Origin: Nitrososphaeria archaeon
GTDB lineage: Archaea; Thermoproteota; Nitrososphaeria; JACIWG01
Direction of reading: 5' to 3'
NCBI GenBank assembly: GCA_963752255.1
Contig: CAVVXT010000014.1
Coordinates: forward strand, 146,022-210,021
DNA: 64,000 nt
Shown here piece by piece: positions 12,335 to 25,045 of this stretch. The notes beneath the pieces were generated by a model. It was not told where the DNA came from and did no database searches. It saw only the letters and a program-made list of their open reading frames with translations. The translations under genes were made by a program, and so were the position numbers. Within the stretch, counting starts at the first letter, position 1; every line of letters starts with the position of its first letter.

Positions 12335-13172
12335 ATGATTCATGATAAAATAATGGTCTCTTTTCAAGGAGAGTTTGGAGCGTATAGCGAAGAAGCCGCA
12401 TTCAAATTTTTTGGCGATAAGATGAAGACGCTTCCCTGTAAAACGTTATCTGACGTCTTTAAAGCTGTAGAAGAAAAGAAGGTCAAGTACGGCATAGTTC
12501 CAGTGGAAAATTCTATTGAGGGAAGCATTTTTCAAACATACGATTTGCTGCTGCAGTCAAACCTTAAAATCTGCGGGGAGATAATACTCAGGGTAGCTCA
12601 CTGTCTTATTTCATGCGAGAAAGAAATGACCTCTGTGAAAGAGGTTTATTCTCACCCTCAAGCCTTGGCGCAGTGTAGAAAGTTTCTGGAGGAGCTAGGA
12701 TGCATTGTGACACCTACTTACGATACTGCAGGTAGTGTTAAGATGATTAAGGAGAGAAATCTGAGGAACGCGGCAGCGATTGCAAGTGAAAGGACGGCTC
12801 AAATATACGGCATGAATGTTCTTAGCACGGCATTTAGAAACGAACCCCCAAAATTATACTAGGTTTTTGGTCATATTCAGCAGGGACCACAAGATGACGG
12901 ACAATGACAAGACTTCGATAATCTTCTCAACAAAGGACATTCCTAAAGCTCTTCTAAAAGCACTTGTACCACTTGCTAAGAGAAATATAAATCTCATGAA
13001 GATAGAGTCTCGTCCCATAATCGGAAAGCCTTGGGAATATAACTTCTACCTCGACTTTGAGGGTCACAGGGGAGAGGAAAGGGTTCAGAAGGCTTTGAAA
13101 GAATTGGGGATGAATTCAACTTTTTTGAAGATATTAGGTTCTTATCCGAAGGCGAAAGAAGATGCTGTATGA
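12335..13172 (+). CDS. pheA: Prephenate dehydratase with ACT domain (frameshift near 12820)
   Basis: FQGEFGAYSE, PVENSIEG, SHPQALAQC, then NYTRFL and IESRP in the next frame; AGGTGA RBS before ATG 12335. Confidence 0.92.
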
Positions 13173-14232
13173 GATCGCTGAAAAAGTGATAAAGCTTCAG
13201 AATGAAGGAAGGAAGATAATAAAGTTCAACGTGGGCGATCCGGATCAGTCTACGAATGAAGAAATTGTGGACACAGCATTTAAAGCGATGAAAGCTGGAA
13301 AGACAAAGTACGGTTCATCTTCTGGAGAGAAAATGCTTAGAGAAAAACTGGCCGAAATCTACAACGTTAAGGCGGAAAATGTAACAATCGCGCCTGGATC
13401 AAAGTGGGCAATTTTTTCATCGATGTTTGTCACGCTTAAGAAAGGTGACAACGTTGTTCTTCCATCTCCCCATTGGAATGCGTATTCACTTATGGCGCAA
13501 CAGATGGGGGTGGAAACAAGGCTTTTGAAATGTGAACTAAAATCGGACTGGAAGATAAACGTGGACAAGATGAATGACCTGATAGATGAAAGAACTGGGA
13601 TGATAATCTTGAACAATCCGAACAACCCGACCAGCAAGGTTGTGGACGGAAAGACCGTTGAAAAAATAGTTGAATTGTCAAGAGAAAACTGCTTACCTAT
13701 TCTTTCAGACGAATCCTACAGCGACATAAGCTTCCTTAAAGTAAGGAGTATCCTAGATTTTCCAAGGGACAATATCTTTGTAAACAGTTTTTCGAAGACT
13801 TTTGCGATGACGGGGTGGAGAATAGGCTTCACGATATCAAATAAAGAATTGGCTGAAAAACTCACGAGGTTAAATCAGATAACTATTTCTTGCGTTCCAC
13901 AGTTCATTCAAGAAGCTGCCATTAAAGCTCTGGAGCTGAGGGATAGAATTGCAGATGAAGTTAAAGAAGTGTATAGAAAAAGGGTGGAGCTGGCTTACGA
14001 CATTCTTTCAAGAAGCAAACTGGAATTTTCTAAGGCTGATTCACCCTTCTACCTGTTTCCAAGATGCGGTGGAGACTCGGAGAGGTTTGCCCTTAGAATG
14101 CTTGATGAGGGCGTCGCCGTAACCCCTGGAACCGCTTTCGGAGATTATAGGGAACACTTCAGAATTGCCCTAACAGTCCCGGATGTGGAAGTTGAAGAAG
14201 GGTTGAATAAGATAGCTGAGATGTTTCCATGA
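13162..14232 (+). CDS. PLP-dependent class I/II (aromatic/aspartate) aminotransferase
   Basis: NNPNNPT, SDESY, SFSKTFAMTGWRIG; located between pheA and tyrA. Confidence 0.92.
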   Translation: MLYEIAEKVIKLQNEGRKIIKFNVGDPDQSTNEEIVDTAFKAMKAGKTKYGSSSGEKMLREKLAEIYNVKAENVTIAPGSKWAIFSSMFVTLKKGDNVVLPSPHWNAYSLMAQQMGVETRLLKCELKSDWKINVDKMNDLIDERTGMIILNNPNNPTSKVVDGKTVEKIVELSRENCLPILSDESYSDISFLKVRSILDFPRDNIFVNSFSKTFAMTGWRIGFTISNKELAEKLTRLNQITISCVPQFIQEAAIKALELRDRIADEVKEVYRKRVELAYDILSRSKLEFSKADSPFYLFPRCGGDSERFALRMLDEGVAVTPGTAFGDYREHFRIALTVPDVEVEEGLNKIAEMFP

Positions 14233-15056
14233 ACTTGAAGAGTGTTGCGATAATAGGCGGAGCTGGGAAGATGGGGCGATGGTTCGCGAGATTTTTTGTC
14301 AAAGAAGGCTTTAGGGTTGTGGTCTCAGGTAGGACTCAAAGCAAATTAGCTAAGCTTAAGGAAGATATACCAGAAATTGAAGTTGCAGAAGATAACGTTG
14401 CAGCAGTGAAGGACGTCGACATGGTTGTGATTTCTGTCCTTCAACAAAACTTTGAGTCTGTTATAAGAGAAATAAGCTCTTATCTGAAGCCTAGGCAGAT
14501 AATAATCGACATAACATCAGTGAAGGAGTCTCCTGTAAAGATAATGCACAGATACATCAAAGGCTGTGTGACTCTTGGGACACATCCGGTGTTCGGTCCC
14601 TTAGTAACAGACTGCAACCAAAACTTTATTCTCACCCCAACCAATAATAAAGAAAAGGATTTTGCAGTAGGGTTCAAGAAATGGCTTGAGGAAAGGGGGT
14701 TCAGAGTGAGTGTAATGTCGCCTAAAAAGCACGATTATCTTATGAGCACTGTACTGGGGCTCTCGCATTTCATAGGATTTGTAACCTGTGAAACCTGGTT
14801 GGACATGAATCTGAAGGAATTGAAGAAGGTTAGCGGAACCAGCTTCAAAATGCTATTTAACCTAGTGGATAACGTTGTACACTCTGACCCAGAATTCTAT
14901 TCTGAGCTGCAAATGAGCTTTCCGGACGTAGATAGAATTGAAGAAAGATTTGAGTTCAACGTTAGGAAATGGTTAAAAATAGTGAAGAGCAAGAACAAGA
15001 ATAGATTCACAAATGAAATGGAGAGATTAAGGAAGAACCTCGATAATCTAGGATAG
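14229..15056 (+). CDS. tyrA: Prephenate/arogenate dehydrogenase
   Basis: IIGGAGKMG, DITSVK, THPVFGP, HDYLMS..LGLSH. Confidence 0.93.
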   Translation: MNLKSVAIIGGAGKMGRWFARFFVKEGFRVVVSGRTQSKLAKLKEDIPEIEVAEDNVAAVKDVDMVVISVLQQNFESVIREISSYLKPRQIIIDITSVKESPVKIMHRYIKGCVTLGTHPVFGPLVTDCNQNFILTPTNNKEKDFAVGFKKWLEERGFRVSVMSPKKHDYLMSTVLGLSHFIGFVTCETWLDMNLKELKKVSGTSFKMLFNLVDNVVHSDPEFYSELQMSFPDVDRIEERFEFNVRKWLKIVKSKNKNRFTNEMERLRKNLDNLG

Positions 15057-15184: not shown

Positions 15185-15478
15185 TTAATCTGCGTGGTCC
15201 TTGATATTTTCCGCGTTTCTGCACAACTTTATTATTTCTTTAAAAACGGTTACGCAATCTTCTGGACTTGTCCCAAGTTGCTTTGCACTATCTTCAATTT
15301 TCTTATAAATTGCGGTTTCTCTTCCAGAGTCTAAAACTGGTCTGTTAAACTTCTTTTTTACTTTCCCGATGTCTTTAGCGAGGTTAACTCTCTCAGATAA
15401 GAGCTCCATAATGCGCTCGTCTACGGCATCTATCCTTTTCCTAAGTAGAGCTATTTCTTCTTCACTTGCCAAAGCCAC
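15185..15478 (-). CDS. Chorismate mutase (AroQ type)
   Basis: LRKRIDAVD..IMELLSER...IGKVK...D.GRE. Confidence 0.92.
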   Translation of the reverse strand: MALASEEEIALLRKRIDAVDERIMELLSERVNLAKDIGKVKKKFNRPVLDSGRETAIYKKIEDSAKQLGTSPEDCVTVFKEIIKLCRNAENIKDHAD

Positions 15479-16574
15479 CGCCTCTTAAAACTCTGGGTAG
15501 TAATCCGGCTCTTATGGTGTGGTCTGCGAGCACGATCGCGATCATGCTCTCAACAACCGGTACAGCACGTGGCACAATGCATGAGTCGTGTCTTCCATCA
15601 ACTTTTAATTTTACAGGTTTCATCTTCTTGAGGTCGACGGTGTCTTTACTTTTTTGGATTGAAGGCGTGGGTTTAACGGCTACTCTCAATAGGATTGGCA
15701 TTCCGTTACTTATTCCTCCTAGGATTCCGCCGGAGCTGTTACTTTTTGTGATCACTTTTCCTCCCTTAACTGTGAAGACATCGTTACTTTCTGACCCCTT
15801 CATACTCGAAAGCTTGAATCCGGACCCGAATTCAACCCCCTTTACTGCAGGAATTGCGAAAAGTGCTTTAGCCAGGTCGCCTTCTAATGTATCAAAAATC
15901 GGCTCGCCGAGGCCAACCGGCACATTAAGGGACACACTTTCTATTACTCCCCCTACGCTGTCTCCTTCGTCCCTCGCTGCCTGAATACTTTTAATCATTT
16001 TTTCTGCAGCGGTGAGGTCGGGGCATCTAACTGAATTCTTTTCAACGTTACTTATGATTTCTTTTATCGTCTTCGGTTCAGCCTTTATGCCGGAGATTTC
16101 CAGCGTATATGCGATGATTTCGATATTCAATAAAGCTAACAATTTTTTTGCGACCATTCCTGCCATTACAAAACCGGCTGTAATCCTGCCAGAGAACCTG
16201 CCTCCACCTCTGTAATCGTTGAAGCCTCCGAATTTGGTAAAGGCGGTGAAGTCAGCGTGTCCTGGTCTTGGTGTAAACTTTATTTTTTCATATGCGCTAG
16301 ATTCTATGTCTTTGTTCCACACAATCATGCATATTGGAGCACCAGTAGTGAACCCATTGAATGTTCCCGAAACGATTTCTACTCTATCTTCCTCCCTTCT
16401 TTGGGTCGCAAAGAAGCTTTGACCTGTCTTCCTCCTTTCCAGCTCCCTCTGAACAGTATCTTCCGAGATTTCAAGGCCTGCTGGACATCCGTCCACGACT
16501 GTACCAACACATCTTCCGTGGCTTTCCCCAAAACATGTTACTTTGAACGCCACACCTATGGTGTTCACACTCAT
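15462..16574 (-). CDS. aroC: Chorismate synthase
   Basis: FGESHG, PRPGHAD, RGGGRFSGR, GGILGGIS, GRHD; likely start ATG 16574 overlapping the aroA stop. Confidence 0.96.
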   Translation of the reverse strand: MSVNTIGVAFKVTCFGESHGRCVGTVVDGCPAGLEISEDTVQRELERRKTGQSFFATQRREEDRVEIVSGTFNGFTTGAPICMIVWNKDIESSAYEKIKFTPRPGHADFTAFTKFGGFNDYRGGGRFSGRITAGFVMAGMVAKKLLALLNIEIIAYTLEISGIKAEPKTIKEIISNVEKNSVRCPDLTAAEKMIKSIQAARDEGDSVGGVIESVSLNVPVGLGEPIFDTLEGDLAKALFAIPAVKGVEFGSGFKLSSMKGSESNDVFTVKGGKVITKSNSSGGILGGISNGMPILLRVAVKPTPSIQKSKDTVDLKKMKPVKLKVDGRHDSCIVPRAVPVVESMIAIVLADHTIRAGLLPRVLRGGGFGK

Positions 16575-17824
16575 GCAACCTCCTCCAAGTTCGCACTCAA
16601 ACATTTTATTGCGCCCCAAAAGTTTGGGAAGGACTTGCTTACACATTCGGCGTTCGTTATCACCGTCTGCCCTTCCGCTGTTAGGCCAAGTATCGCCGAA
16701 GCCATCGCTACTCTATGGTCGTTAAAAGGGTTTATCTTTGCGCCGATCGGTTTAGAGCCAAATATTTTCAAGGACCCATCTTCTATTGTTGTTTTAATAC
16801 ACATCTTTTCCAAACATTTTACCATAGTTTTAACTCTATTTGATTCTTTAAACTTTAGCCTACCTATTCCAGTTATTTCACTCACACCTTTTGCTCTCGC
16901 GCACAGAACACAGAGTGGAAGGAACAGGTCTGGACAGTGGGATACATTAAATTTTATCGGCTTGGGAACGGATTTTCTGACCGTAATCGTTTCCCCCTGT
17001 TTTTCAACCCTAATTTCCATCATCTCCATAACATCAATTATCACCCTGTCGGCCTGTATGCTTTTTAGATCTAGACCGCTGACGGTTACCTTACCTGTAA
17101 GTGCGCCAGCAACTAAAAAATAGGACGCTGAACTCCAATCGCCTTCAACCTTAAAAGTGGTTGGTCTATACCGTTGAGGTGGAACCTCGAATCTCAAGTC
17201 TCCAAAGCTTTCCACTTCTACTCCAAATTCTTTTTGTACATTTAGAGTCAAAAGCACATAAGGCTTGGATGGAACCGATGTGACGGATTTGATGGTGGCT
17301 CCATGTTCGATTAGAGGAGCTATCAGTAGCAGCGCTGAGATGAACTGTGAACTCATGTCGCCTATTACATCGATTTTTCCACACTTCGGCTTACCTTTAA
17401 CAGATATGATCATATTTTTTTGATAGCATTCTACCCCTAAGTGTTTGAGAGCATCAATCAACGGCTTCATAGGACGCTCCATCAAGCTCTTGTACCCGCT
17501 AAGTTTACATTCTTCTCCAACCAGACAGCAGACAGCGGTAAGAAAACGCAGTGTTGTCCCCGAAGCGCCACAAAAAATCTCTCTCTGAGGCCTTTTCAAC
17601 CTGCCGCCTTCCGCGATCAGTTTGTCCTCTTTAACATCCAGCACAACGCCTAATCTTCTTAAGCCTTCTATTGTAGCCAGTGTGTCATCACACAATAAAG
17701 GAGATCGCAGTGTGCTTCTGCCATCCGCTAAGCCAGCACATACGAGTGCTCTATGTGTAACGCTTTTTGAAGGTGGCGCTTGGAAATTCCCCTCAATTTC
17801 ACTTTTTCTTACTTTCACTTGCAC
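16571..17824 (-). CDS. aroA: EPSP synthase
   Basis: PSKSVTHR, SGTTLR, SSQFISALL, KESNR, DHRVAMA. Confidence 0.96.
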   Translation of the reverse strand: MQVKVRKSEIEGNFQAPPSKSVTHRALVCAGLADGRSTLRSPLLCDDTLATIEGLRRLGVVLDVKEDKLIAEGGRLKRPQREIFCGASGTTLRFLTAVCCLVGEECKLSGYKSLMERPMKPLIDALKHLGVECYQKNMIISVKGKPKCGKIDVIGDMSSQFISALLLIAPLIEHGATIKSVTSVPSKPYVLLTLNVQKEFGVEVESFGDLRFEVPPQRYRPTTFKVEGDWSSASYFLVAGALTGKVTVSGLDLKSIQADRVIIDVMEMMEIRVEKQGETITVRKSVPKPIKFNVSHCPDLFLPLCVLCARAKGVSEITGIGRLKFKESNRVKTMVKCLEKMCIKTTIEDGSLKIFGSKPIGAKINPFNDHRVAMASAILGLTAEGQTVITNAECVSKSFPNFWGAIKCLSANLEEVA

Positions 17825-18347
17825 CTATACCACAACTCTTTCTAACAATTTCAGTAACCTTTTCTGCTACCTCTTCTGCGTTTAATTCTGTAGTATTAAT
17901 TACGTAATCAGCTGAATTTTCGTACAAGGGTTCTCTGAAATTAAACATCCTCTTAATTTCCTCTGTTCCGCCTTCAGCCATTAAAAGAGGCCGTTTTCCT
18001 TCTTGCTTTGAACCCCTCTCTAGGATAGCATCAAACTCCGCTTTAAGCAAAAATATGATTCCGTTTTGTTTGAGCCTGTCGATGTTCACCCTACTCATGA
18101 CTACGCCTCCACCACAATCGATAACCACATCTTCCATTTTGGAAACTTCTTCTACCGTATTTATCTCCTTTTTTCTAAACACTTCCTCTCCTTCTTCATA
18201 AAATATTTGCGCAACCGTCTTCTTGGATTTTTCTACTATCAAGTCATCTGTGCTCACATATTTCCTCCCTAGTTTCCTTGCTACTTCCTTAGCAACGCTA
18301 GTCTTTCCTGTAGCCATGAAACCTATGAAAACTACATTTTCCTTTAT
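17799..18347 (-). CDS. aroK: Shikimate kinase (bacterial AroK/AroL type)
   Basis: In-frame upstream extension IKENVVFIGFMATGKT (Walker A), GEEVFR, CGGG, RPLL; apparent start is ATA at 18347. Confidence 0.9.
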   Translation of the reverse strand: MKENVVFIGFMATGKTSVAKEVARKLGRKYVSTDDLIVEKSKKTVAQIFYEEGEEVFRKKEINTVEEVSKMEDVVIDCGGGVVMSRVNIDRLKQNGIIFLLKAEFDAILERGSKQEGKRPLLMAEGGTEEIKRMFNFREPLYENSADYVINTTELNAEEVAEKVTEIVRKSCGIGASESKKK

Positions 18348-18353
18348 TTAGGC

Positions 18354-19208
18354 TCACCCTTTTAACGCTTCAACTGCAACATCTTTCATTACATCGACGG
18401 GCGCTTTGCACCCTGTCCATATTTCAAAGGAGAAGGCCGCCTGATTAACGAACATATCTACTCCATGTATAACTATCGCGCCGGCTTCTCTGGCATCTTT
18501 CAACAATCTTGTCTCAAATGGAACGTATACTATATCCATGACTGCAAGCCCTTTCCTCAAGAGATTTTTTGGAACCAGTGTTCCATTAAGGTCAGGCGCC
18601 ATACCGACTGAGGTGCAGTTTATGATCAGATCCGTATCTCGTATTTCATCCTTTAACGACTGATTTTCTAGCTTCTTTGCCGTGACTGGAATGCCTGTTT
18701 TAGCAGAGACCTTGTCAGCGAGTTCCTCAGCCTTCTCTTTAGTTCTGTTCAGTATCACTATGTCATGTGGTTTCTCTTTTGCGACTGAGTATATGACAGC
18801 TCTTGCGGCACCTCCCGCTCCGAGAACAAGAACTTTCATGCCCTGAAGAGATATTCCACTTTTGACCAAAGATCTTAAGGCTCCTTCTCCGTCCGAATTG
18901 TATCCAACGAGGATTCCGCTGTCGTTTACAATTGTGTTAACGGCCCCAATGTCGTTTGCGACTTCGTCTACAGCATCAATGTAGTCCATAACTTTGACCT
19001 TGTGGGGGATGGTAACATTCATCCCAAGTATGTTAAATGCTCTCATGCCATCAATCGCACCTTCAAGCATCTTCTCCCCTACCCTAAATGCGACGTAAAC
19101 AAAGTCCAAGTCAAGGGTTTGGAACGCTTTATTATGGATTATAGGTGAAAGTGTGTGTTCTATCGGATCACCAATAACGCAGCAGATTTTTGTCTTATAC
19201 GATGTCAT
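18354..19208 (-). CDS. aroE: Shikimate dehydrogenase
   Basis: HTLSP, NVTIPHK, GAVNT, GYNSD, LGAGGAA. Confidence 0.95.
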   Translation of the reverse strand: MTSYKTKICCVIGDPIEHTLSPIIHNKAFQTLDLDFVYVAFRVGEKMLEGAIDGMRAFNILGMNVTIPHKVKVMDYIDAVDEVANDIGAVNTIVNDSGILVGYNSDGEGALRSLVKSGISLQGMKVLVLGAGGAARAVIYSVAKEKPHDIVILNRTKEKAEELADKVSAKTGIPVTAKKLENQSLKDEIRDTDLIINCTSVGMAPDLNGTLVPKNLLRKGLAVMDIVYVPFETRLLKDAREAGAIVIHGVDMFVNQAAFSFEIWTGCKAPVDVMKDVAVEALKG

Positions 19209-19888
19209 AGATTATCACAAGATGAAAGCTCGGACCCGAGCATTTCATATACTTCTCTAAAGCTGTTTAATTCAATCTGTCCGCCAGCGGATTCTAAACC
19301 AGCCCCAGCCGACACGTAAGCAAAATCACTTCCGAATAGGGGTGAGAGCACCCTGCTGATGGAACCTTTTTCACCCATACAGAAGGAGATAAGGCGTGTG
19401 CGATTCGCAAATTCTTGAAGAAGTTTAAGGGCAGTCAAGTTGTCTTCAAACTTTTCAGCCATCACAACCACTTTACATAAATCAGCATCTAAACCCATCT
19501 GTTTCCTAACGATCTCCCTAAGCTTCTCAATTCCAGGTGTCCCTTTAAAGTCATGGAAAGAAATGAGAACTTTACTATCCTTTCCTTTAACAAGTTCAAT
19601 GACTTTCTGTATGTTAGGCGAATTAAGTTCTATGTCGATAAAGGATGCTCCTAGAGAAGCCGCTCTCAAAAGTTCTTTGATTCGATCTTTTTCATTTCCA
19701 GACCAGAAGCCTCCCTCACTTCTTAGCCTGTTGCATGCTATCCAAGGCCTCTTGAGACCTTTAGGCAACTCGGACCAAGAACTTCCTATAATATCTATTC
19801 TTACTTCTATGAGATCCGCTTTGTTGACAACTTTTACGCTCTTCCTGTCGGTGTTTGTAAGCACGGCACAAAGTTTAGGTTTTAGCAT
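19205..19888 (-). CDS. aroD: Type I 3-dehydroquinate dehydratase
   Basis: EVRID, R...EGG, ISFHDF, MGEKGSISR; likely start ATG 19888. Confidence 0.92.
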   Translation of the reverse strand: MLKPKLCAVLTNTDRKSVKVVNKADLIEVRIDIIGSSWSELPKGLKRPWIACNRLRSEGGFWSGNEKDRIKELLRAASLGASFIDIELNSPNIQKVIELVKGKDSKVLISFHDFKGTPGIEKLREIVRKQMGLDADLCKVVVMAEKFEDNLTALKLLQEFANRTRLISFCMGEKGSISRVLSPLFGSDFAYVSAGAGLESAGGQIELNSFREVYEMLGSELSSCDNL

Positions 19889-19895
19889 CCATCGA

Positions 19896-20933
19896 TCACC
19901 CTGCAAGGGCCTCAAGTAGATCTTTCTGCTCCACTTCCCTGACCACAACCTTCCCTATCCGCTCTGGTAGAACGAGCACCGTTTTTCCGTACCAAGCTTT
20001 CTTATCCTTCAGCGTTTCTTCGACTATTTTCCTCCTCTCTAGCCTTGTCGAAATGGGTAGGCCAAACTTTTTCAGAATATTCTCCACCTCCTTTTTCTGC
20101 TCGAATCCGATCATCTTTTCTGCAACATTGCACGCCATCATGATACCTATTGAAACTGCGAAGCCATGTCTTATCTTGTAATTTGACATCTTTTCTATAG
20201 GGTGACCAAAGGTGTGGCCGAAGTTTAAGATTCTGCGAAGGCCCCCTTCTCTCTCATCTCTTTCCACTACATCAACCTTCATAGAGATACATCTTTCTAC
20301 AATTTTCTGTATGATTTCTTGATCCTTTGCCAGAACCTTTCCAGCATTATCTTCAAGGAATCTGAAGAAATTTTCATCAAATACAACCGCGTATTTGACT
20401 ACTTCAGCTAAACCGTTCAAAAATTCCGCCGTAGGCAAGGTGTCTAGGAATTGCGTGTCAACCAAAATAAACTTGGGCTGATAAAAGGTTCCAACAGTAT
20501 TTTTTCTTTTGAAGTTCACTCCAGTTTTACCCCCTATGCCTGCATCAACTTGTGAAAGCAATGTTGTTGGCACCTGGGCAAAATCCATCCCACGCATAAA
20601 AGTTGACGCAGCGAAACCCGTTACGTCGCCTATTATCCCACCGCCTAAGGCTATAAGTAGGGATTTTCGTGTGAAATCTTTTTCAATAAGTTTTTTCCAA
20701 ATTAATTCCGCAGTAGCCAAACTCTTGTATCTCTCTCCATCGTCGATTTCGATCATTTCTAAATTGTTATCTGAGTCGATGAACTCAGCCACTTTATCTA
20801 GCCAGAAGGATGCAATAGTCCTGTTTGTCACAATACAAACCTTTGAAGGACTTATTTTTTCAATTTCTGCATTTATCTGATTTAGCACATTCCTTCCAAC
20901 CACTATGCTGCTGAACTTACTTTTTATCTTCAC
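19896..20933 (-). CDS. aroB: 3-dehydroquinate synthase (bacterial type)
   Basis: GGGIIGD, PTTLLSQVD, GGKTG, LNFGHTFGH. Confidence 0.95.
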   Translation of the reverse strand: MKIKSKFSSIVVGRNVLNQINAEIEKISPSKVCIVTNRTIASFWLDKVAEFIDSDNNLEMIEIDDGERYKSLATAELIWKKLIEKDFTRKSLLIALGGGIIGDVTGFAASTFMRGMDFAQVPTTLLSQVDAGIGGKTGVNFKRKNTVGTFYQPKFILVDTQFLDTLPTAEFLNGLAEVVKYAVVFDENFFRFLEDNAGKVLAKDQEIIQKIVERCISMKVDVVERDEREGGLRRILNFGHTFGHPIEKMSNYKIRHGFAVSIGIMMACNVAEKMIGFEQKKEVENILKKFGLPISTRLERRKIVEETLKDKKAWYGKTVLVLPERIGKVVVREVEQKDLLEALAG

Positions 20934-21721
20934 TTTAATTCATCCAACTCATGCATCAACTCTTTGAAAGCATCAAAATCGAGCTGCTGTTTGTTGTCGC
21001 TCAATGCATGTTTAGGGTCTGGATGCACTTCGATTATGAGGCCGTCTGAGCCTATTACCTTAGACGCCTTAGCTAAAGGTTTAACAAGGTCACTGGAGCC
21101 AGCGGCGTGCGAAGGATCGACTACCACCGGCAGGCTTGAGAGCTTCTTGATTATTGGTATCGACGCTAAATCTAAAGTGAACCTGGTTTCCGTTACAAAG
21201 GTTCTGATCCCTCTTTCGCATAAAATTACGTCGTGGTTACCTTCGCTCATAACATACTCAGCCGCGCTAAGCCATTCCTCTAACGTCGCGCTAATTCCCC
21301 TTTTCACTATAACTGGTCTGTTGGCCTTTCCAACTTCCTTTAACAAGGCGAAGTTTTGCATGTTTCTTGCACCTACTTGAACTACATCAGCTATTTCGCA
21401 GACCCGTCTTACATCACGTGGATCAAGGACCTCTGTGACAACAGGTATATTCACCTCATCCTTCACCTTCTTCACAATGGCTAATCCATTAATGCCAAGG
21501 CCTTGAAAGGAATAAGGAGAAGTTCTTGGTTTGAACACCATCGCCCGAAGAAGGTGAGCACCGCAAGCTTTAACAAATTGGGCAGTGTTGAGCAATTGCT
21601 CCCTAGATTCTACAGAGCAAGGCCCTGCCACAATTGTGAAGTCTTTTCCTATTCTTAAGTCGCCGACCTTTATCTCCCTTTCTTTTTTTTCTAAGACAAG
21701 CTTTAGGTCCATTTTTTTCAC
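20930..21721 (-). CDS. aroF: DAHP synthase type I-beta
   Basis: AGPCSVES, FKPRTSPYSFQG, GARNMQN, CERG, DPSH. Confidence 0.95.
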   Translation of the reverse strand: MKKMDLKLVLEKKEREIKVGDLRIGKDFTIVAGPCSVESREQLLNTAQFVKACGAHLLRAMVFKPRTSPYSFQGLGINGLAIVKKVKDEVNIPVVTEVLDPRDVRRVCEIADVVQVGARNMQNFALLKEVGKANRPVIVKRGISATLEEWLSAAEYVMSEGNHDVILCERGIRTFVTETRFTLDLASIPIIKKLSSLPVVVDPSHAAGSSDLVKPLAKASKVIGSDGLIIEVHPDPKHALSDNKQQLDFDAFKELMHELDELK

Positions 21722-22641
21722 TTTATAAAGGATGAAATCTGCTTGGTTATACCATCAACGTCTAGTTCGAGCTTTTGTAAGAGTTCTTGGTAGTCCCTTG
21801 AAGATTCGCCGAACATATCAGCCACGCCTATTCTCTTCACCCTTATGCCGTGTTCGGAGAGTGCTTCACAGACCGCAGACCCCAATCCGCCGATGATGTT
21901 GTGCTCCTCTATTGTTACCACTCTCCCAGAGTTTTTGCAGATTTGTATCAGCTTTTCATCCATAGGCTTTATTGTGTGAAGATCGACAACGGACGATTTT
22001 AAACCCTTCTTAGCCAACTTTTTGCTTACATGCAGGGCGAAAGAAACCATTACGCCGCATGCAACTAGAACAAGGTCATCTCCATCTTCCAAGACTTTAG
22101 CCTCTCCCAATTTGACTTCGTCTTCGTCTACGTAGATATTAGGACAGAAGTCTCTGCCAATTCTCATGTAGACCGGCCCCTTGGCCATCACAGCCTGTTC
22201 AAGGAGACCACGTGTAGACGCGGCATCAGAAGGTATGATAACCCTCATACCTGGTATTACTCTCATCAGGGCAATATCCTCTAGGCACTGATGAGATGAG
22301 CCATCAGAAAAATCGCTCAACCCACCGTGTGTGGTTACGATCTTGACATTTAGATTATCCCTTGCTATAGTATTCCTTATCTGCTCCCACGCTCTTAGGA
22401 TAAACATCGAAAATGCTGTAGCCACAGGGATCATCCCTTCCAATGATAGGCCCGCGGCTATTCCTATCATATCTTGTTCACTTATCCCCACGTTTATGAA
22501 TCGGTCTGGGAACCTCTGTCTAAACAAAGCTGTCTTAGTTGAATCCCCAACATCTGAATCTAAGACTATCAGCTGCCTATTCCTTTTCCCAAGTTCCTGC
22601 AGCTTTTCCCCTAACGCATTTCTAAAGCTTTCAGCTTTCAT
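21718..22641 (-). CDS. Transketolase C-terminal subunit
   Basis: GISEQ, DGSSHQ, GPVYMR, EEHNIIGGLG. Confidence 0.94.
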   Translation of the reverse strand: MKAESFRNALGEKLQELGKRNRQLIVLDSDVGDSTKTALFRQRFPDRFINVGISEQDMIGIAAGLSLEGMIPVATAFSMFILRAWEQIRNTIARDNLNVKIVTTHGGLSDFSDGSSHQCLEDIALMRVIPGMRVIIPSDAASTRGLLEQAVMAKGPVYMRIGRDFCPNIYVDEDEVKLGEAKVLEDGDDLVLVACGVMVSFALHVSKKLAKKGLKSSVVDLHTIKPMDEKLIQICKNSGRVVTIEEHNIIGGLGSAVCEALSEHGIRVKRIGVADMFGESSRDYQELLQKLELDVDGITKQISSFIK

Positions 22642-23794
22642 TTATATCAATCACCGCTCTTTCGTACTCCTCAGGTGTTGGGACGTAGTGAAAAAGGTTT
22701 TTCTTAAACGACTTTATTCCCCCACTCCTCTCGGTTAAAGCGATAACAACCACAGGTCTAGTCTGGTTTGACTTGAGTTGCTCAAATATACGTACAAGTT
22801 TTTCCGGGTCATGCCCATCCGTAACCATCGTTTCCCATCCAAAAGATGACCATTTTTCCTCAAGTGGCTCTAGCCTTTTTATTTCTTCCGTGTTACCGTT
22901 CAGTTGGAGAAGATTTCTATCGACTATCGCGATAAGGTTATCCAGTGTATGATGTGCACCACTCATAGCGGCTTCCCATATCTGGCCTTCGTTTAGCTCA
23001 CCGTCCCCTAACAGAACTATGACTTTTCCTTCTTCCCCCTTGATCTTTTTACCCAAAGCTATACCTACTCCAATGGATAATCCCTGGCCAAGCGATCCTG
23101 TTGAGACCAAAGCTTCCGGCAAATATTTCCTCTCAGGGTGACTTTGCAGCCTTGAACCAAGACTCCCAAGAGACAACAGCTCTTCCTCGTCGATCGCTTT
23201 CTCTTCAGCTAGCATCGCATATAACGCGGAAGCAGCATGTCCCTTGCTCAAAACGAGAGAATTACAGCTATTCATTATGTTTGGTGAAAACACTCGGAAG
23301 ATAGATGCGATCAAATCGCTTGCCGATAGAGAAGAAGGAAGGTGACCTACCCCTGTGGAAAATCCCTGCTTCAAAACCTTTGTTTTTGCGCCCTTGAAAG
23401 CTTGGTCCTCGCTAAACGATTTCTTGGAAACATGTTCCTTTAAGGGAACAAGCATGTCGACGAGCATTCTTCCAGTCGCCGTAAGCTTAATCGGCCTAGT
23501 TTTACCTGCTGTGTAATAGGTTAACAGACCGAATTCCCTAAGAATTCTTGAATTAAGTTTAAGGCTTGATAAAGAAACGTCTGAAGCCTTCGATAATTTT
23601 CTGAGAAACGAAGAAGCAGGTAGGTTTCGGCTTCCCTTAATGTTTGAAAGAATAAGTAATTGGTCTTCATTAAGAGCATTAAGTAAATGTTTTGCGAGTG
23701 CTACTCTGTTGTTTAAGGATATTGGTTTTCCATTTCCACTCTCACTTAACGAAATTGGCTACCCATGCCCACTCTCTTCTAAAGTTCCTAGCAA
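22631..23794 (-). CDS. Winged-HTH domain fused to transketolase N-terminal (ThDP-binding) subunit; one in-frame TAG at 23761-23759
   Basis: TK motifs LSKGHA, STGSLGQG, GDGELNEG. The frame stays open for 97 codons upstream of the tracked ATG 23467 and encodes LNEDQLLILSNI...FLRKLSKASDVSLSSLKLNSRILREFGLLTY...PIKLTATGRMLV. An in-frame TTG lies at 23794. Confidence 0.75.
23711..23776 (-). repeat. Imperfect 33-bp tandem duplication at the 5' end of the wHTH-TK gene
   Basis: GAGAGTGGGCATGGGTAGCCAATTTCGTTAAGT versus GAGAGTGGAAATGGAAAACCAATATCCTTAAAC, 24/33 identical. Confidence 0.75.
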
Positions 23795-23861
23795 AGGGGT
23801 TTAAAAATGTTACTAACATTCAGAGCACATAGATATAAAACAGACGGAAAACTGCATCCAC

Positions 23862-23930
23862 TAGCGTTTTAAAATAGTTAACGTAGATTAAGTGAAAACC
23901 AAATCTGCATGATCATGTAGTAAAACGCTA
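23862..23930. promoter_or_regulatory. Nested inverted repeats between divergent aro operon and V4R gene
   Basis: TAGCGTTTTA (23862-23871) / TAAAACGCTA (23921-23930); internal palindrome CATGATCATG (23908-23917). Confidence 0.5.
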
Positions 23931-23971
23931 AACATTTTATGCGCAACACTTAAAAGGTTAAAAGAGATGTA

Positions 23972-25045
23972 ATGTATTGGGCGCTGAAATTGTCTGTTAA
24001 ACCTTTTGATGAAACCGAAGCCCTTGAAGCTGTAGACCAGATCGTCGGCAAGTCTCAGTACGTCAATTATATATCAAGGCAGGCGTACAAATCAATAGAA
24101 GAAGCTCTTAAAAAGTCTCTAGAAAGGTCAAGGGTTGTAATCCCTGTCACGGACCCTACTCGTGTGATTTTAAGGGGGACCACATTCCAAATGCTGCTAG
24201 ATGGGATAAGGAATTATGTAGGTCCAGATGAGCATAAGAAACTTCTTCGAATGTTGGGGGAAGAAATAGGAGAAAGTTTCGGACATGCCCTCATCGAAAC
24301 GCTCAAACAAAAGGGAAGACTTCCTAAAACAAGTAAGACTATACTCGTCGTTTGGTCAATTTTTGATAGCTCCGCCAGATGGGGGGATATATCAGTAGAT
24401 CTATTTGATGAAACGAGAAAGCGTGCGGAAATAAGGGTGAGCAAGAATTTCCTAACAAGTGGTTACGAACATGACAGACACCGTCATTGCTCCTTTTTTG
24501 AGGGCTACATAATGGGCGTAGCTAATCAAGCGTTCATGGAATGGGGGAGGTGGGTCAAAGGATTATATCCTTCCTCAAGCATTCTTTTATGCGAATCCAT
24601 AGTGGAAACACAACAAAATGAAAACTGTATTTTCAGTATGAAATTTAAGGAGGAAGAGTTGACTGGGGCCTGTGACAGGTTAGTTGAAGCTATTAAAATG
24701 CATGATAATGGTAAATGGGAAGAATCTGTAAAACTTTCCTCAGAAAGCTTGGAAACTGCTTTAAAGGAAAAGGTTGATTGGACCAACGGGAAGTTTAGCT
24801 TTAGCCGAGCCTTAACAGTCTTCCCTAAAGTCTCAGTAACTTTACCTTCGTCTAATCAAGCGATCAAATTTAACAAGTTCGCAGGTGAAGTTGTACGTCA
24901 TAAACTGGGGCGTGTGGTTACAGACGAAGATTCTCATGCATTTGTTGTTTTCGCAAGAAGGTTCATCACTGAACTAGAAGAAATTCGGTTAGGAGAAAGG
25001 TTAAGGACACTTGTTAAAAGGTCCATTCAGACAGATAAGGGTTAG
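23972..25045 (+). CDS. V4R (4-vinyl reductase/Bet3-like) domain plus C-terminal HEPN-like helical domain
   Basis: G..IG..F, WG, HCSFFEGYIMG, E...C.F (V4R-like); LVEAIKMHDNGKWEESVKLSSESLETALK...RH...VTDEDSHAFVVFARRFI (HEPN-like). Confidence 0.6.
   Translation: MYWALKLSVKPFDETEALEAVDQIVGKSQYVNYISRQAYKSIEEALKKSLERSRVVIPVTDPTRVILRGTTFQMLLDGIRNYVGPDEHKKLLRMLGEEIGESFGHALIETLKQKGRLPKTSKTILVVWSIFDSSARWGDISVDLFDETRKRAEIRVSKNFLTSGYEHDRHRHCSFFEGYIMGVANQAFMEWGRWVKGLYPSSSILLCESIVETQQNENCIFSMKFKEEELTGACDRLVEAIKMHDNGKWEESVKLSSESLETALKEKVDWTNGKFSFSRALTVFPKVSVTLPSSNQAIKFNKFAGEVVRHKLGRVVTDEDSHAFVVFARRFITELEEIRLGERLRTLVKRSIQTDKG

Follow-up and report, generated by a model that had tools for sequence, protein, structure and literature searches.

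The aromatic amino acid (aro) operon of a Nitrososphaeria archaeon (GenBank assembly GCA_963752255.1) begins with a gene that appears to be hidden behind a codon-programmed leader. The operon lies on the minus strand of a 64,000-nucleotide (nt) stretch of contig CAVVXT010000014.1 (positions 146,022 to 210,021), which we call the window and in whose own coordinates all positions are given. Its first reading frame, frame A, joins a winged-helix domain of the Tar/TK0271 family to the thiamine diphosphate (ThDP)-binding N-terminal subunit of a split transketolase. Frame A has no start codon ahead of the winged helix; it is overlapped by two six-codon open reading frames (mini-ORFs), offset by one base, in which a Phe and a Tyr codon, respectively, directly follow C-CAA. 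We propose that a ribosome waiting for charged Phe- or Tyr-tRNA on this leader would slip back by one base and enter frame A, such that the regulator-enzyme is made when these amino acids are scarce, and we put the probability of this full reading at roughly 60%. A preliminary description of the same DNA had presented the fusion as a candidate enzyme-regulator; the larger finding is the codon-programmed leader, which goes beyond that idea.

The offset leader and its proposed sensor codon

Frame A is closed upstream by TAG 23761-23759, directly before CCA 23758, and ends with the stop codon 22633-22631. Its codons 1-97 (23758-23468) include no ATG, GTG or TTG. The earliest canonical starts are ATG 23467, which is the pick of the gene caller, and ATG 23455, and the ORF caller therefore reports just a 278-codon transketolase subunit. 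The preliminary description had noticed 97 open codons upstream of that start and their continuity with the transketolase, which holds: there is no stop from 23758 into the transketolase frame, and the peptide strings it quoted are present in the translation. It gave no reason why the domain should be hidden, which we find in a frame without a start codon and in starts that are located in the two offset mini-ORFs. These encode Met-Gly-Ser-Gln-Phe-Arg (ATG 23766) and Met-Glu-Asn-Gln-Tyr-Pro (ATG 23733) and each lies on one copy of a 31-nt tandem repeat (77% identity, spacing 33 nt); frame A opens exactly at the CCA overlapping the first CAA. The regulator frame thus appears hidden because translation seems to start in the offset mini-ORFs. 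Contigs from four DNA runs of four studies, two contigs spanning the entire stretch, contain 0 indels between 23400 and 23900, which excludes an assembly error as the cause of this frame layout.

Alignment of the 5' ends of related genes revealed that the missing start codon is the rule, and that the element kept is a short ORF offset by one base. For counting, we pooled 138 unique loci (profile E <=1e-10, at least 150 nt of upstream sequence, de-duplicated) and defined a cassette as a start codon followed, after at most 10 codons, by C-CAA or C-CGA in the offset frame and within the open regulator frame. At least one cassette was found at 132 of the 138 loci, from Nitrososphaeria, Bathyarchaeia and DPANN archaea. 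Run on the remaining two frames of this stretch, the test was positive at 25 and 12 of 138 loci, and on a stretch further downstream at 9, 2 and 20 of 138. At 69 of the 138 loci, the regulator frame has no ATG, GTG or TTG at all from the upstream stop to profile position 10. The CAA is always preceded by C, so that a CCA is available one base back; C-CGA is a rarer variant at this site, and C-CTC and C-CGC occur as single cases, each of which would behave in the same way as C-CAA. Passing from the mini-ORF frame to the regulator frame takes a -1 shift or, less plausibly, a +2 hop. The layout of programmed frameshifting, with a start in the offset frame, the body in the -1 frame and an overlap between the two, is that of the same 132 loci. 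We judge it probable that a frame shift is required.

The codon after CAA, hereafter the sensor codon, follows the gene downstream. Among loci with an assignable aminoacyl-tRNA synthetase within the first two downstream ORFs, it specifies the amino acid of that synthetase in 19 of 19 cases (Tyr, Pro, His, Thr and Phe), which are not 19 independent trials because the loci are interrelated, and the counts overstate independence. Tyr sensors precede tyrosyl-tRNA synthetase (TyrRS) at seven loci (L067, L158, L160, L161, L167, L169 and L179, all above the TyrRS cut-off), Pro sensors (CCA, CCT or CCC) the prolyl enzyme (ProRS) at six (L060, L101, L128, L166, L173 and L180) and His sensors (CAC or CAT) the histidyl enzyme (HisRS) at four (L079, L087, L110 and L119); a Thr sensor (ACA) is found with ThrRS at L070 and a Phe sensor (TTT) with the alpha subunit of PheRS at L178. 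Further genes extend the list. Trp sensors (TGG) precede TrpB-like enzymes (L125, L137), and Pro sensors precede proB (L141), pyrroline-5-carboxylate reductase (L177) and ornithine cyclodeaminase (L101). Tyr sensors are also found ahead of prephenate dehydratase (L049), prephenate dehydratase plus dehydrogenase (L181) and relatives of phenylalanine 4-monooxygenase (L164) and of tryptophanase/tyrosine phenol-lyase (L182); the genome of L182 is complete, and its cassette reads Met-Pro-Arg-Gln-Tyr-stop.

At loci where the domain is fused to transketolase, the sensor is always Tyr (TAT or TAC) and/or Phe (TTT or TTC), in 23 of 23 cases; it varies among the stand-alone DPANN homologues, and His and Pro sensors occur at several separate places on the domain tree. 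Four DPANN loci have three C-CAA sensor sites in a row within a single leader ORF, reading Phe, Trp, Tyr (L172, L179) or Tyr, Trp, Tyr (L176, L181). The agreement between codon and synthetase suggests, indirectly, that the shift depends on tRNA charging, and we lean towards a shift that senses aminoacyl-tRNA supply. By a narrow preference, we would extend this to a large unannotated archaeal system, in which a winged-helix regulator is made only after a -1 slip at C-CAA and is re-aimed by a single sensor codon (Tyr, Phe, Trp, His, Pro or Thr) to the matching synthetases and biosynthetic genes, its aro version being fused, in addition, to a subunit that makes erythrose 4-phosphate (E4P).

We infer a mechanism in which the slip would depend on charging and its product would activate transcription and perhaps respond to E4P. 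Ribosomes would start in the offset frame, at the mini-ORF ATGs 23766 and 23733, and as long as Tyr- and Phe-tRNA are plentiful they would complete the hexapeptide and stop. With charged Phe or Tyr tRNA in short supply, UUU or UAU would stay unread, leaving the A site empty and peptidyl-tRNA(Gln) on CAA in the P site; this tRNA could slip by -1 from CAA to CCA, where the first and third positions still pair, and the ribosome would go on in the regulator frame and make the regulator-enzyme. Shortage of Phe or Tyr would in this way yield the activator together with its fused E4P-producing subunit and, via the activator, switch the aro operon on, by analogy with Tar. P-site slippage with a vacant A site is described in a review of frameshifting as an established mechanism under aminoacyl-tRNA limitation that needs no stimulatory structure (PMC8211752). 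The preliminary description had considered sensing via ThDP or sugar phosphates; on their own, we judge these less likely signals than Phe/Tyr-tRNA supply at the ribosome, given that the starts are located in the offset mini-ORFs.

Competing explanations for the leader

Several observations weigh against the tRNA-gated slip. C-CAA-UAU and C-CAA-UUU are not canonical X-XXY-YYZ heptamers, and the P-site tRNA re-pairs at two of three positions. Many subfamilies have a hairpin from ~6 nt past the sensor, the sequence of which differs per subfamily, and the 48 nt after the sensor fold better than shuffled sequences (mean z -1.50 over 100 representatives vs -0.10 for a stretch 150 nt downstream; z below -1.5 in 47% vs 9%); the leader of the window has no significant hairpin at this position (z -0.09 and 0.02), and neither does its genus (z -0.30). 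Next to the kinship among the synthetase loci, the targets are not always telling: at about 25 loci in Bathyarchaeia, the sensor is Tyr or Phe but the genes downstream have no evident aromatic link (PAS histidine kinases, DHDPS-family proteins and proteins of ~580 and ~359 amino acids without Pfam match), and most His sensors away from HisRS precede M20 peptidases or unknown proteins. In-frame starts form another group. The other 69 of the 138 loci have at least one canonical start in the regulator frame ahead of the domain, L047 has an ordinary ATG and no cassette, the sister genome of the window has a GTG at codon 20, and at L013 and L015 a GTG or ATG touches the mini-ORF stop. At L087 (= L118), upstream of HisRS, a Met-Ala-Ser-Gln-His leader is in frame with the domain and needs no shift; this may be a fixed or inverted-logic variant, or an assembly indel. 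Finally, a distant clade from other families of the same phylum (L183-L187, L191, L196) starts in frame at an ordinary GTG, after which an N-terminal Ser-x-Phe-Ser is conserved, and has no cassette, and the cassette thus does not span the whole superfamily; L184-L187 and L196 of this clade are located upstream of sodium:solute symporter genes.

The linker between the two domains holds in-frame starts as well. Some such start is present at 22 of the 23 fusion loci, window included, and a separate transketolase subunit could for this reason be produced from ATG 23467. Speaking against it, there is no GGTG/GGAG-type ribosome-binding site in the sequence upstream of ATG 23467 or ATG 23455 (the transketolase C cistron, by contrast, has GGTGAT 8 nt from its ATG at 22641), the Met at 23467 is not kept among relatives, and at L005 the whole linker up to the transketolase core is devoid of in-frame starts.

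Among the alternatives to the gated slip, the one that fares best retains the frameshift and drops the sensing: the shift would occur at a fixed rate, with the leader setting a low constant yield and the codon after CAA being merely slow. A set ratio is indeed what many programmed frameshifts are described to yield (PMC8211752), and the hairpin common in the family fits classical stimulated -1 frameshifting. A classical two-tRNA slip is excluded, though, because a tRNA in the A site finds no match after a -1 move (UAU to AUA). A constant yield also does not sit well with a codon that follows the specificity of the downstream gene at all 19 synthetase loci and at many biosynthetic ones, or with leaders that read Phe, Trp and Tyr in a row. 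We consider a fixed-rate shift unlikely.

Alternatively, no frameshift might be needed, with translation of frame A starting at ATT 23755 or ATA 23722, or by reinitiation past the mini-ORF stop, and with the mini-ORFs acting as modulating upstream ORFs. In Tyr and Phe cassettes, the conserved site does contain a near-cognate codon (CCA-ATA/ATT), which makes in-frame initiation a genuine competitor for the aromatic leaders. It fails where the sensor is His, Pro or Thr, since the regulator frame is then entered at ACA, ACC or AAC, which are not near-cognate starts, and loci without any canonical in-frame start are found among these as well (e.g. L119, L121, L129, L130, L131, L177 and L180). Moreover, many relatives (e.g. 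L036, L045, L048 and L104) have a GGAG/GGTGA-type ribosome-binding site a few bases 5' of the offset-frame start and 16-22 nt before ATA; no clear site of this type precedes the offset-frame starts of the window itself. Reinitiation could work at some loci, since the ATGA stop-start overlap of L015, the TAGTG of L013 and the in-frame GTG of the sister genome lie near the mini-ORF stop, and the half of all loci with some canonical in-frame start would allow in-frame initiation more generally. In Bathyarchaeia, on the other hand, the offset frame ends 46-52 nt beyond the site, inside helix 1 of the domain, and there is no start there. Taken together, we rate initiation in frame A as quite unlikely.

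A third explanation is that the winged-helix part is a decaying Tar remnant that is not translated here, and that the gene yields nothing but the 278-codon transketolase subunit starting at ATG 23467. This would match the output of the ORF caller and the lack of a start codon ahead of the domain, but a remnant would hardly be 97% identical to its counterpart in the sister genome and 45-57% identical across the family of the window, with no stop in any copy and the invariant residues of the family retained, nor would it be accompanied by a conserved and duplicated leader cassette; together with L005, which lacks any linker start, these features make a remnant highly improbable. A last group of explanations is just as improbable: RNA-level correction of the frame, whether the polymerase slips or the transcript is edited, and a hop from CAA by +2 that skips part of the sensor codon and would also lead into the regulator frame. 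The site offers no homopolymer run on which a polymerase could slip, and the way in which sensor codons follow their target genes suggests that it is decoding that is regulated.

Additional observations concern the same leaders. In Bathyarchaeia, a group of Tyr-sensor paralogues (L052, L055, L061, L064, L096, L107 and L111) precedes a conserved protein of ~580 amino acids and a group of Phe-sensor paralogues (L045, L063, L075, L076 and L082) one of ~359 amino acids. One representative of each protein (that at L052 and that at L045) has no NCBIfam match either, the other members having been scanned against Pfam alone, and both proteins are candidates for new aromatic amino acid-related functions. 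His-sensor regulators in genomes of Micrarchaeota type (L129, L130, L138, L142 and L143) are found ahead of M20-family metallopeptidase or deacylase genes, the products of which might release histidine. Downstream of the triple-sensor leaders (L172, L176, L179 and L181) are an amino acid racemase-family gene, prephenate dehydratase plus dehydrogenase, or TyrRS. L190, L193 and L195, which form another distant clade, have a different mini-ORF of 4-5 codons (Met/Val-Arg-Gly-Leu-stop), which overlaps a start-less regulator frame (Ala-Gly-Ile-Val...); reading it as a Leu sensor was not supported, the genes downstream (L190, L193) encoding PAPS-reductase-domain proteins.

The Tar-family winged helix and its fusion to transketolase

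The start-less frame itself, the Tar identity of its first domain and the fusion to transketolase are, in our judgement, nearly certain. The NCBIfam model NF053753 ('TK0271 family transcriptional activator') matches the 97-residue extension with E 3.2e-18 (65.7 bits, profile positions 2-77 of 89) and the whole of frame A with E 4.3e-19 (68.5 bits; 71.5 bits in the genome scan), the E values ranging from 3e-18 to 1e-19. With scores (65.7-71.5) well under the curated family cut-off of 130 bits, the window protein is a clear relative, not an equivalog, of TK0271; Pfam gave no match to the extension. An AlphaFold2 model of the domain, built from a 135-sequence alignment, reached a predicted local distance difference test score (pLDDT) of 84.9 and a predicted template modelling score (pTM) of 0.76 and comprises four helices, a beta wing and a C-terminal helix in the order helix-helix-helix-wing-helix. 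Among PDB entries, Foldseek ranks MarR-family and other winged-helix proteins highest (TM 0.60-0.69, E about 2e-3), and a sequence search of solved structures with the 135-sequence profile returned weak winged-helix matches only (best E 0.01). Profile and fold hence agree with the winged helix that the preliminary description had read from the extension, and the structure prediction it had suggested gave the expected fold.

The second domain contains the ThDP motif GDGELNEG, and the transketolase motifs listed in the preliminary description (GH, SKGH, GDGE and TERSGG) are all in the translation. The genome, 94.7% complete, has no other Transketolase_N match. A model of the full fusion (pLDDT 81.4) shows two confident domains separated by a low-confidence linker at residues 95-105. 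As read from the sequence, codons 23758-22634 encode one polypeptide: a Tar-family winged helix, a short linker and the ThDP-binding N subunit of a split transketolase.

Tar (TK0271) of Thermococcus kodakarensis is reported to activate aromatic amino acid operons, as shown by experiment, and is the first gene of the aro operon TK0271-TK0262 (PMC6737238). According to the same paper, Tar dissociates from DNA in vitro in response to E4P but not to chorismate, Trp, Tyr or Phe, and all Tar homologue genes reside in aro operons (PMC6737238). The preliminary description knew of no described example, a statement to be amended insofar as the regulator family was already known, as a separate first aro-operon gene in Thermococcales. 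Tar and the window domain belong to the same family by profile, are small winged-helix units and are encoded by the first aro cistron, and the ligand that releases Tar is the product of the transketolase reaction encoded here. They differ in that the window domain is fused to the transketolase N subunit, scores under the family cut-off, has no recognisable Tar operator and is encoded by a frame without start codon that carries a leader cassette. On these grounds, we classify the window protein as a new architectural variant of the Tar family. Because the family is an aro activator and E4P, the transketolase product, releases Tar from DNA, the role of enzyme-regulator, or trigger enzyme, is plausible by analogy, and E4P is a concrete candidate for its ligand. 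PutA and BirA are trigger enzymes that combine an enzyme and a DNA-binding regulator in one polypeptide; as in the fusion, the catalytic domain attached to the DNA-binding one is from the pathway under control. In contrast to these, the enzyme part here is just one subunit of a split transketolase.

The fusion is kept among relatives. In 41 related genomes, the domain is present in 14, including 9/9 other members of the family of the window; in a sample of 401 genomes of the class, it is present in 18, with 9/9 of this family and 8/14 of a second one, and it was not found in the other families searched in this sample, e.g. 0/224 and 0/78 in the two largest. Wherever the contig permits reading, domain and Transketolase_N share one open frame, which spans 339-409 codons in relatives, and a domain followed by a separate transketolase N gene was seen in no locus examined. 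A scan of one genome per species yielded 110 relatives, and the best 80 of these include 16 fusions, with labels such as Thermoprotei, Bathyarchaeota and Methanomethylicia. In total, the combination of winged helix and Transketolase_N, a search for which the preliminary description had proposed, was found at 23 unique loci from several lineages; L188 is a further likely fusion, which was not scored for Transketolase_N and is outside the 23. The first downstream ORF encodes the transketolase C subunit at all loci scanned (L034, L042, L044, L048, L050 and L105, as well as L188), and the second 3-deoxy-D-arabino-heptulosonate 7-phosphate (DAHP) synthase at 3/3 loci where this was scanned. On the domain tree (97 columns), parsimony places 8 changes for the fusion, of which only 2 are forced by supported branches; the tree is too poorly resolved for the number of origins to be counted.

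Genome scans for the family as a whole were positive in 18/401, 37/301, 75/301 and 43/401 genomes, with stand-alone DPANN homologues accounting for 37/301 and 75/301 in two phylum samples. A word-indexed profile search of 5.8 billion protein sequences (lengths 45-167 amino acids) retrieved 11 'hypothetical' proteins, and such near-absence from protein databases fits genes that callers cannot start. Four loci near-identical to Bathyarchaeial ones (L054, L069, L089 and L106) are on metagenome-assembled genomes labelled Aquificota, Patescibacteria, Desulfaltia and Krumholzibacteriaceae; these are likely mis-binned archaeal contigs.

Known systems, operon context and promoter region

Control of prfB, encoding release factor 2, relies on a slow A-site codon that lets the P-site tRNA slip, and the shift rate reports the supply of the reading factor. 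The same logic is proposed for the leader described here; however, prfB shifts by +1 at a stop codon in bacteria, whereas we propose a -1 shift at sense codons, in archaea and with a transcription regulator as the product. Leader-peptide attenuation (trpL, pheL, hisL and thrL) employs a short leader ORF with codons of the regulated amino acid, and both attenuation and T-box riboswitches act on the target classes seen here, i.e. amino acid biosynthesis operons and aminoacyl-tRNA synthetases. Different from attenuation, there is no terminator/antiterminator alternative (0 terminator-like sites in 23400-24000), and the proposed output is the reading frame, and thereby regulator synthesis, rather than transcript elongation; the leader overlaps the coding frame that it would control. 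By analogy, we view the leader as a cross between prfB-type sensor frameshifting and leader-peptide attenuation that is a member of neither, as it has no A-site stop codon, no terminator alternative and no X-XXY-YYZ heptamer.

In Archaea, a 2021 review names fucA1 of Saccharolobus solfataricus as the only -1 programmed frameshift reported (PMC8211752). This case differs in its canonical A-AAA-AAT heptamer, its restriction to a single gene in few strains and its lack of a known sensing role. A 2016 review considered that hungry-codon frameshifting could make starvation-specific trans-frame proteins, but that "no examples are known" (PMC5009743). Our literature search, carried out mainly at the level of titles and abstracts, found no description of a frameshift in the Tar/TK0271 family and nothing on the family beyond the Tar paper. 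The latter raises the question of how a shortage of a single aromatic amino acid is recognised by the cell and states that Crenarchaeota must use another regulator (PMC6737238). How archaea sense amino acid shortage is largely unknown, and the leader is to be seen in this context. If the proposed slip operates, it would be the first natural use of hungry-codon frameshifting and an archaeal counterpart of attenuation and T-box control, and it would couple transcription to tRNA charging, in three or more archaeal phyla, through a device that one codon can programme. The aro version would integrate two signals, with tRNA charging acting on the synthesis of the protein and the precursor level, E4P, on its activity. 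The slip would also explain why the family is nearly invisible in protein databases, and it would offer a portable switch for synthetic biology. For annotation, it would mean that a member of this family without a start codon ought not to be shortened to the nearest downstream ATG.

The features of the locus are collected in Table 1. As the preliminary description had stated, the fusion gene heads the aro operon and is its first cistron in a Pfam scan of the downstream ORFs. The operon of ten genes it had counted comprises nine cistrons, from 23758 to 15462, and reaches ten only if the winged-helix domain is counted apart. Their order is fusion, transketolase C, DAHP synthase, 3-dehydroquinate (DHQ) synthase, type I DHQ dehydratase, shikimate dehydrogenase, shikimate kinase, 5-enolpyruvylshikimate-3-phosphate (EPSP) synthase and chorismate synthase.

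Table 1. Coordinates of the aro operon, its leader and its putative promoter element in the window
Feature	Position	Strand	Basis or remark
TATA-like box TTTTTAAA	23800..23807	-	Inferred promoter element, 33 nt upstream of the first mini-ORF ATG
Mini-ORF 1 (frame B)	23746..23766	-	ATG-GGT-AGC-CAA-TTT-CGT-TAA; candidate slip site C-CAA + Phe TTT at 23758-23752
Mini-ORF 2 (frame B)	23713..23733	-	ATG-GAA-AAC-CAA-TAT-CCT-TAA; candidate slip site C-CAA + Tyr TAT at 23725-23719
Regulator-enzyme reading frame (frame A)	22631..23758	-	375 codons + stop; open back to TAG 23761-23759
Tar/TK0271-like winged-helix domain	23450..23698	-	Residues 21-103 of frame A; NCBIfam NF053753 and AlphaFold2
Internal in-frame ATGs	23453..23467 (23467-23465 and 23455-23453)	-	Sole candidate starts for a separate transketolase N subunit
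Transketolase N-terminal (ThDP-binding) domain	22736..23347	-	Pfam PF00456, E 2.9e-26, 92.7 bits (cut-off 22)
Transketolase C-terminal subunit	21718..22641	-	Pfam Transket_pyr and Transketolase_C; 11-nt overlap with the end of the fusion gene
Rest of the aro operon, seven shikimate-pathway genes	15462..21721	-	Pfam matches, all over cut-offs

The same TATA-like box is found 29-34 nt 5' of the first ATG in the relatives L004-L011. The operator of Tar is a palindrome, TGGACA-N8-TGTCCA, upstream of the B recognition element (BRE)/TATA box, and we scanned for its core as GGRCA-N8-TGYCC. Directly upstream of the TATA box, this core is present at 26/138 related loci vs 0/138 control stretches, and a half-site adjoins the TATA box at 42/138 loci vs 0/138 controls. 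Neither core nor half-site was found in the promoter of the window or of the sister genome, and a comparison of the aro promoter with the region upstream of the neighbouring tyrosine-branch genes gave no usable common words.

The latter genes, encoding a class I/II aminotransferase and prephenate dehydrogenase (13162-15056, plus strand), run towards the end of the aro operon from the opposite strand, which places the tyrosine branch beside the chorismate genes. At the other end, a divergent ORF of 357 codons without Pfam match at E 1e-5 (23972-25045, plus strand) lies beside the aro promoter. The intergenic region between this ORF and the aro operon contains a perfect 10-nt inverted repeat, TAGCGTTTTA / TAAAACGCTA, at 23862-23871 and 23921-23930 (49 nt apart), as well as a palindrome at 23905-23920, both of which are possible operator sites.

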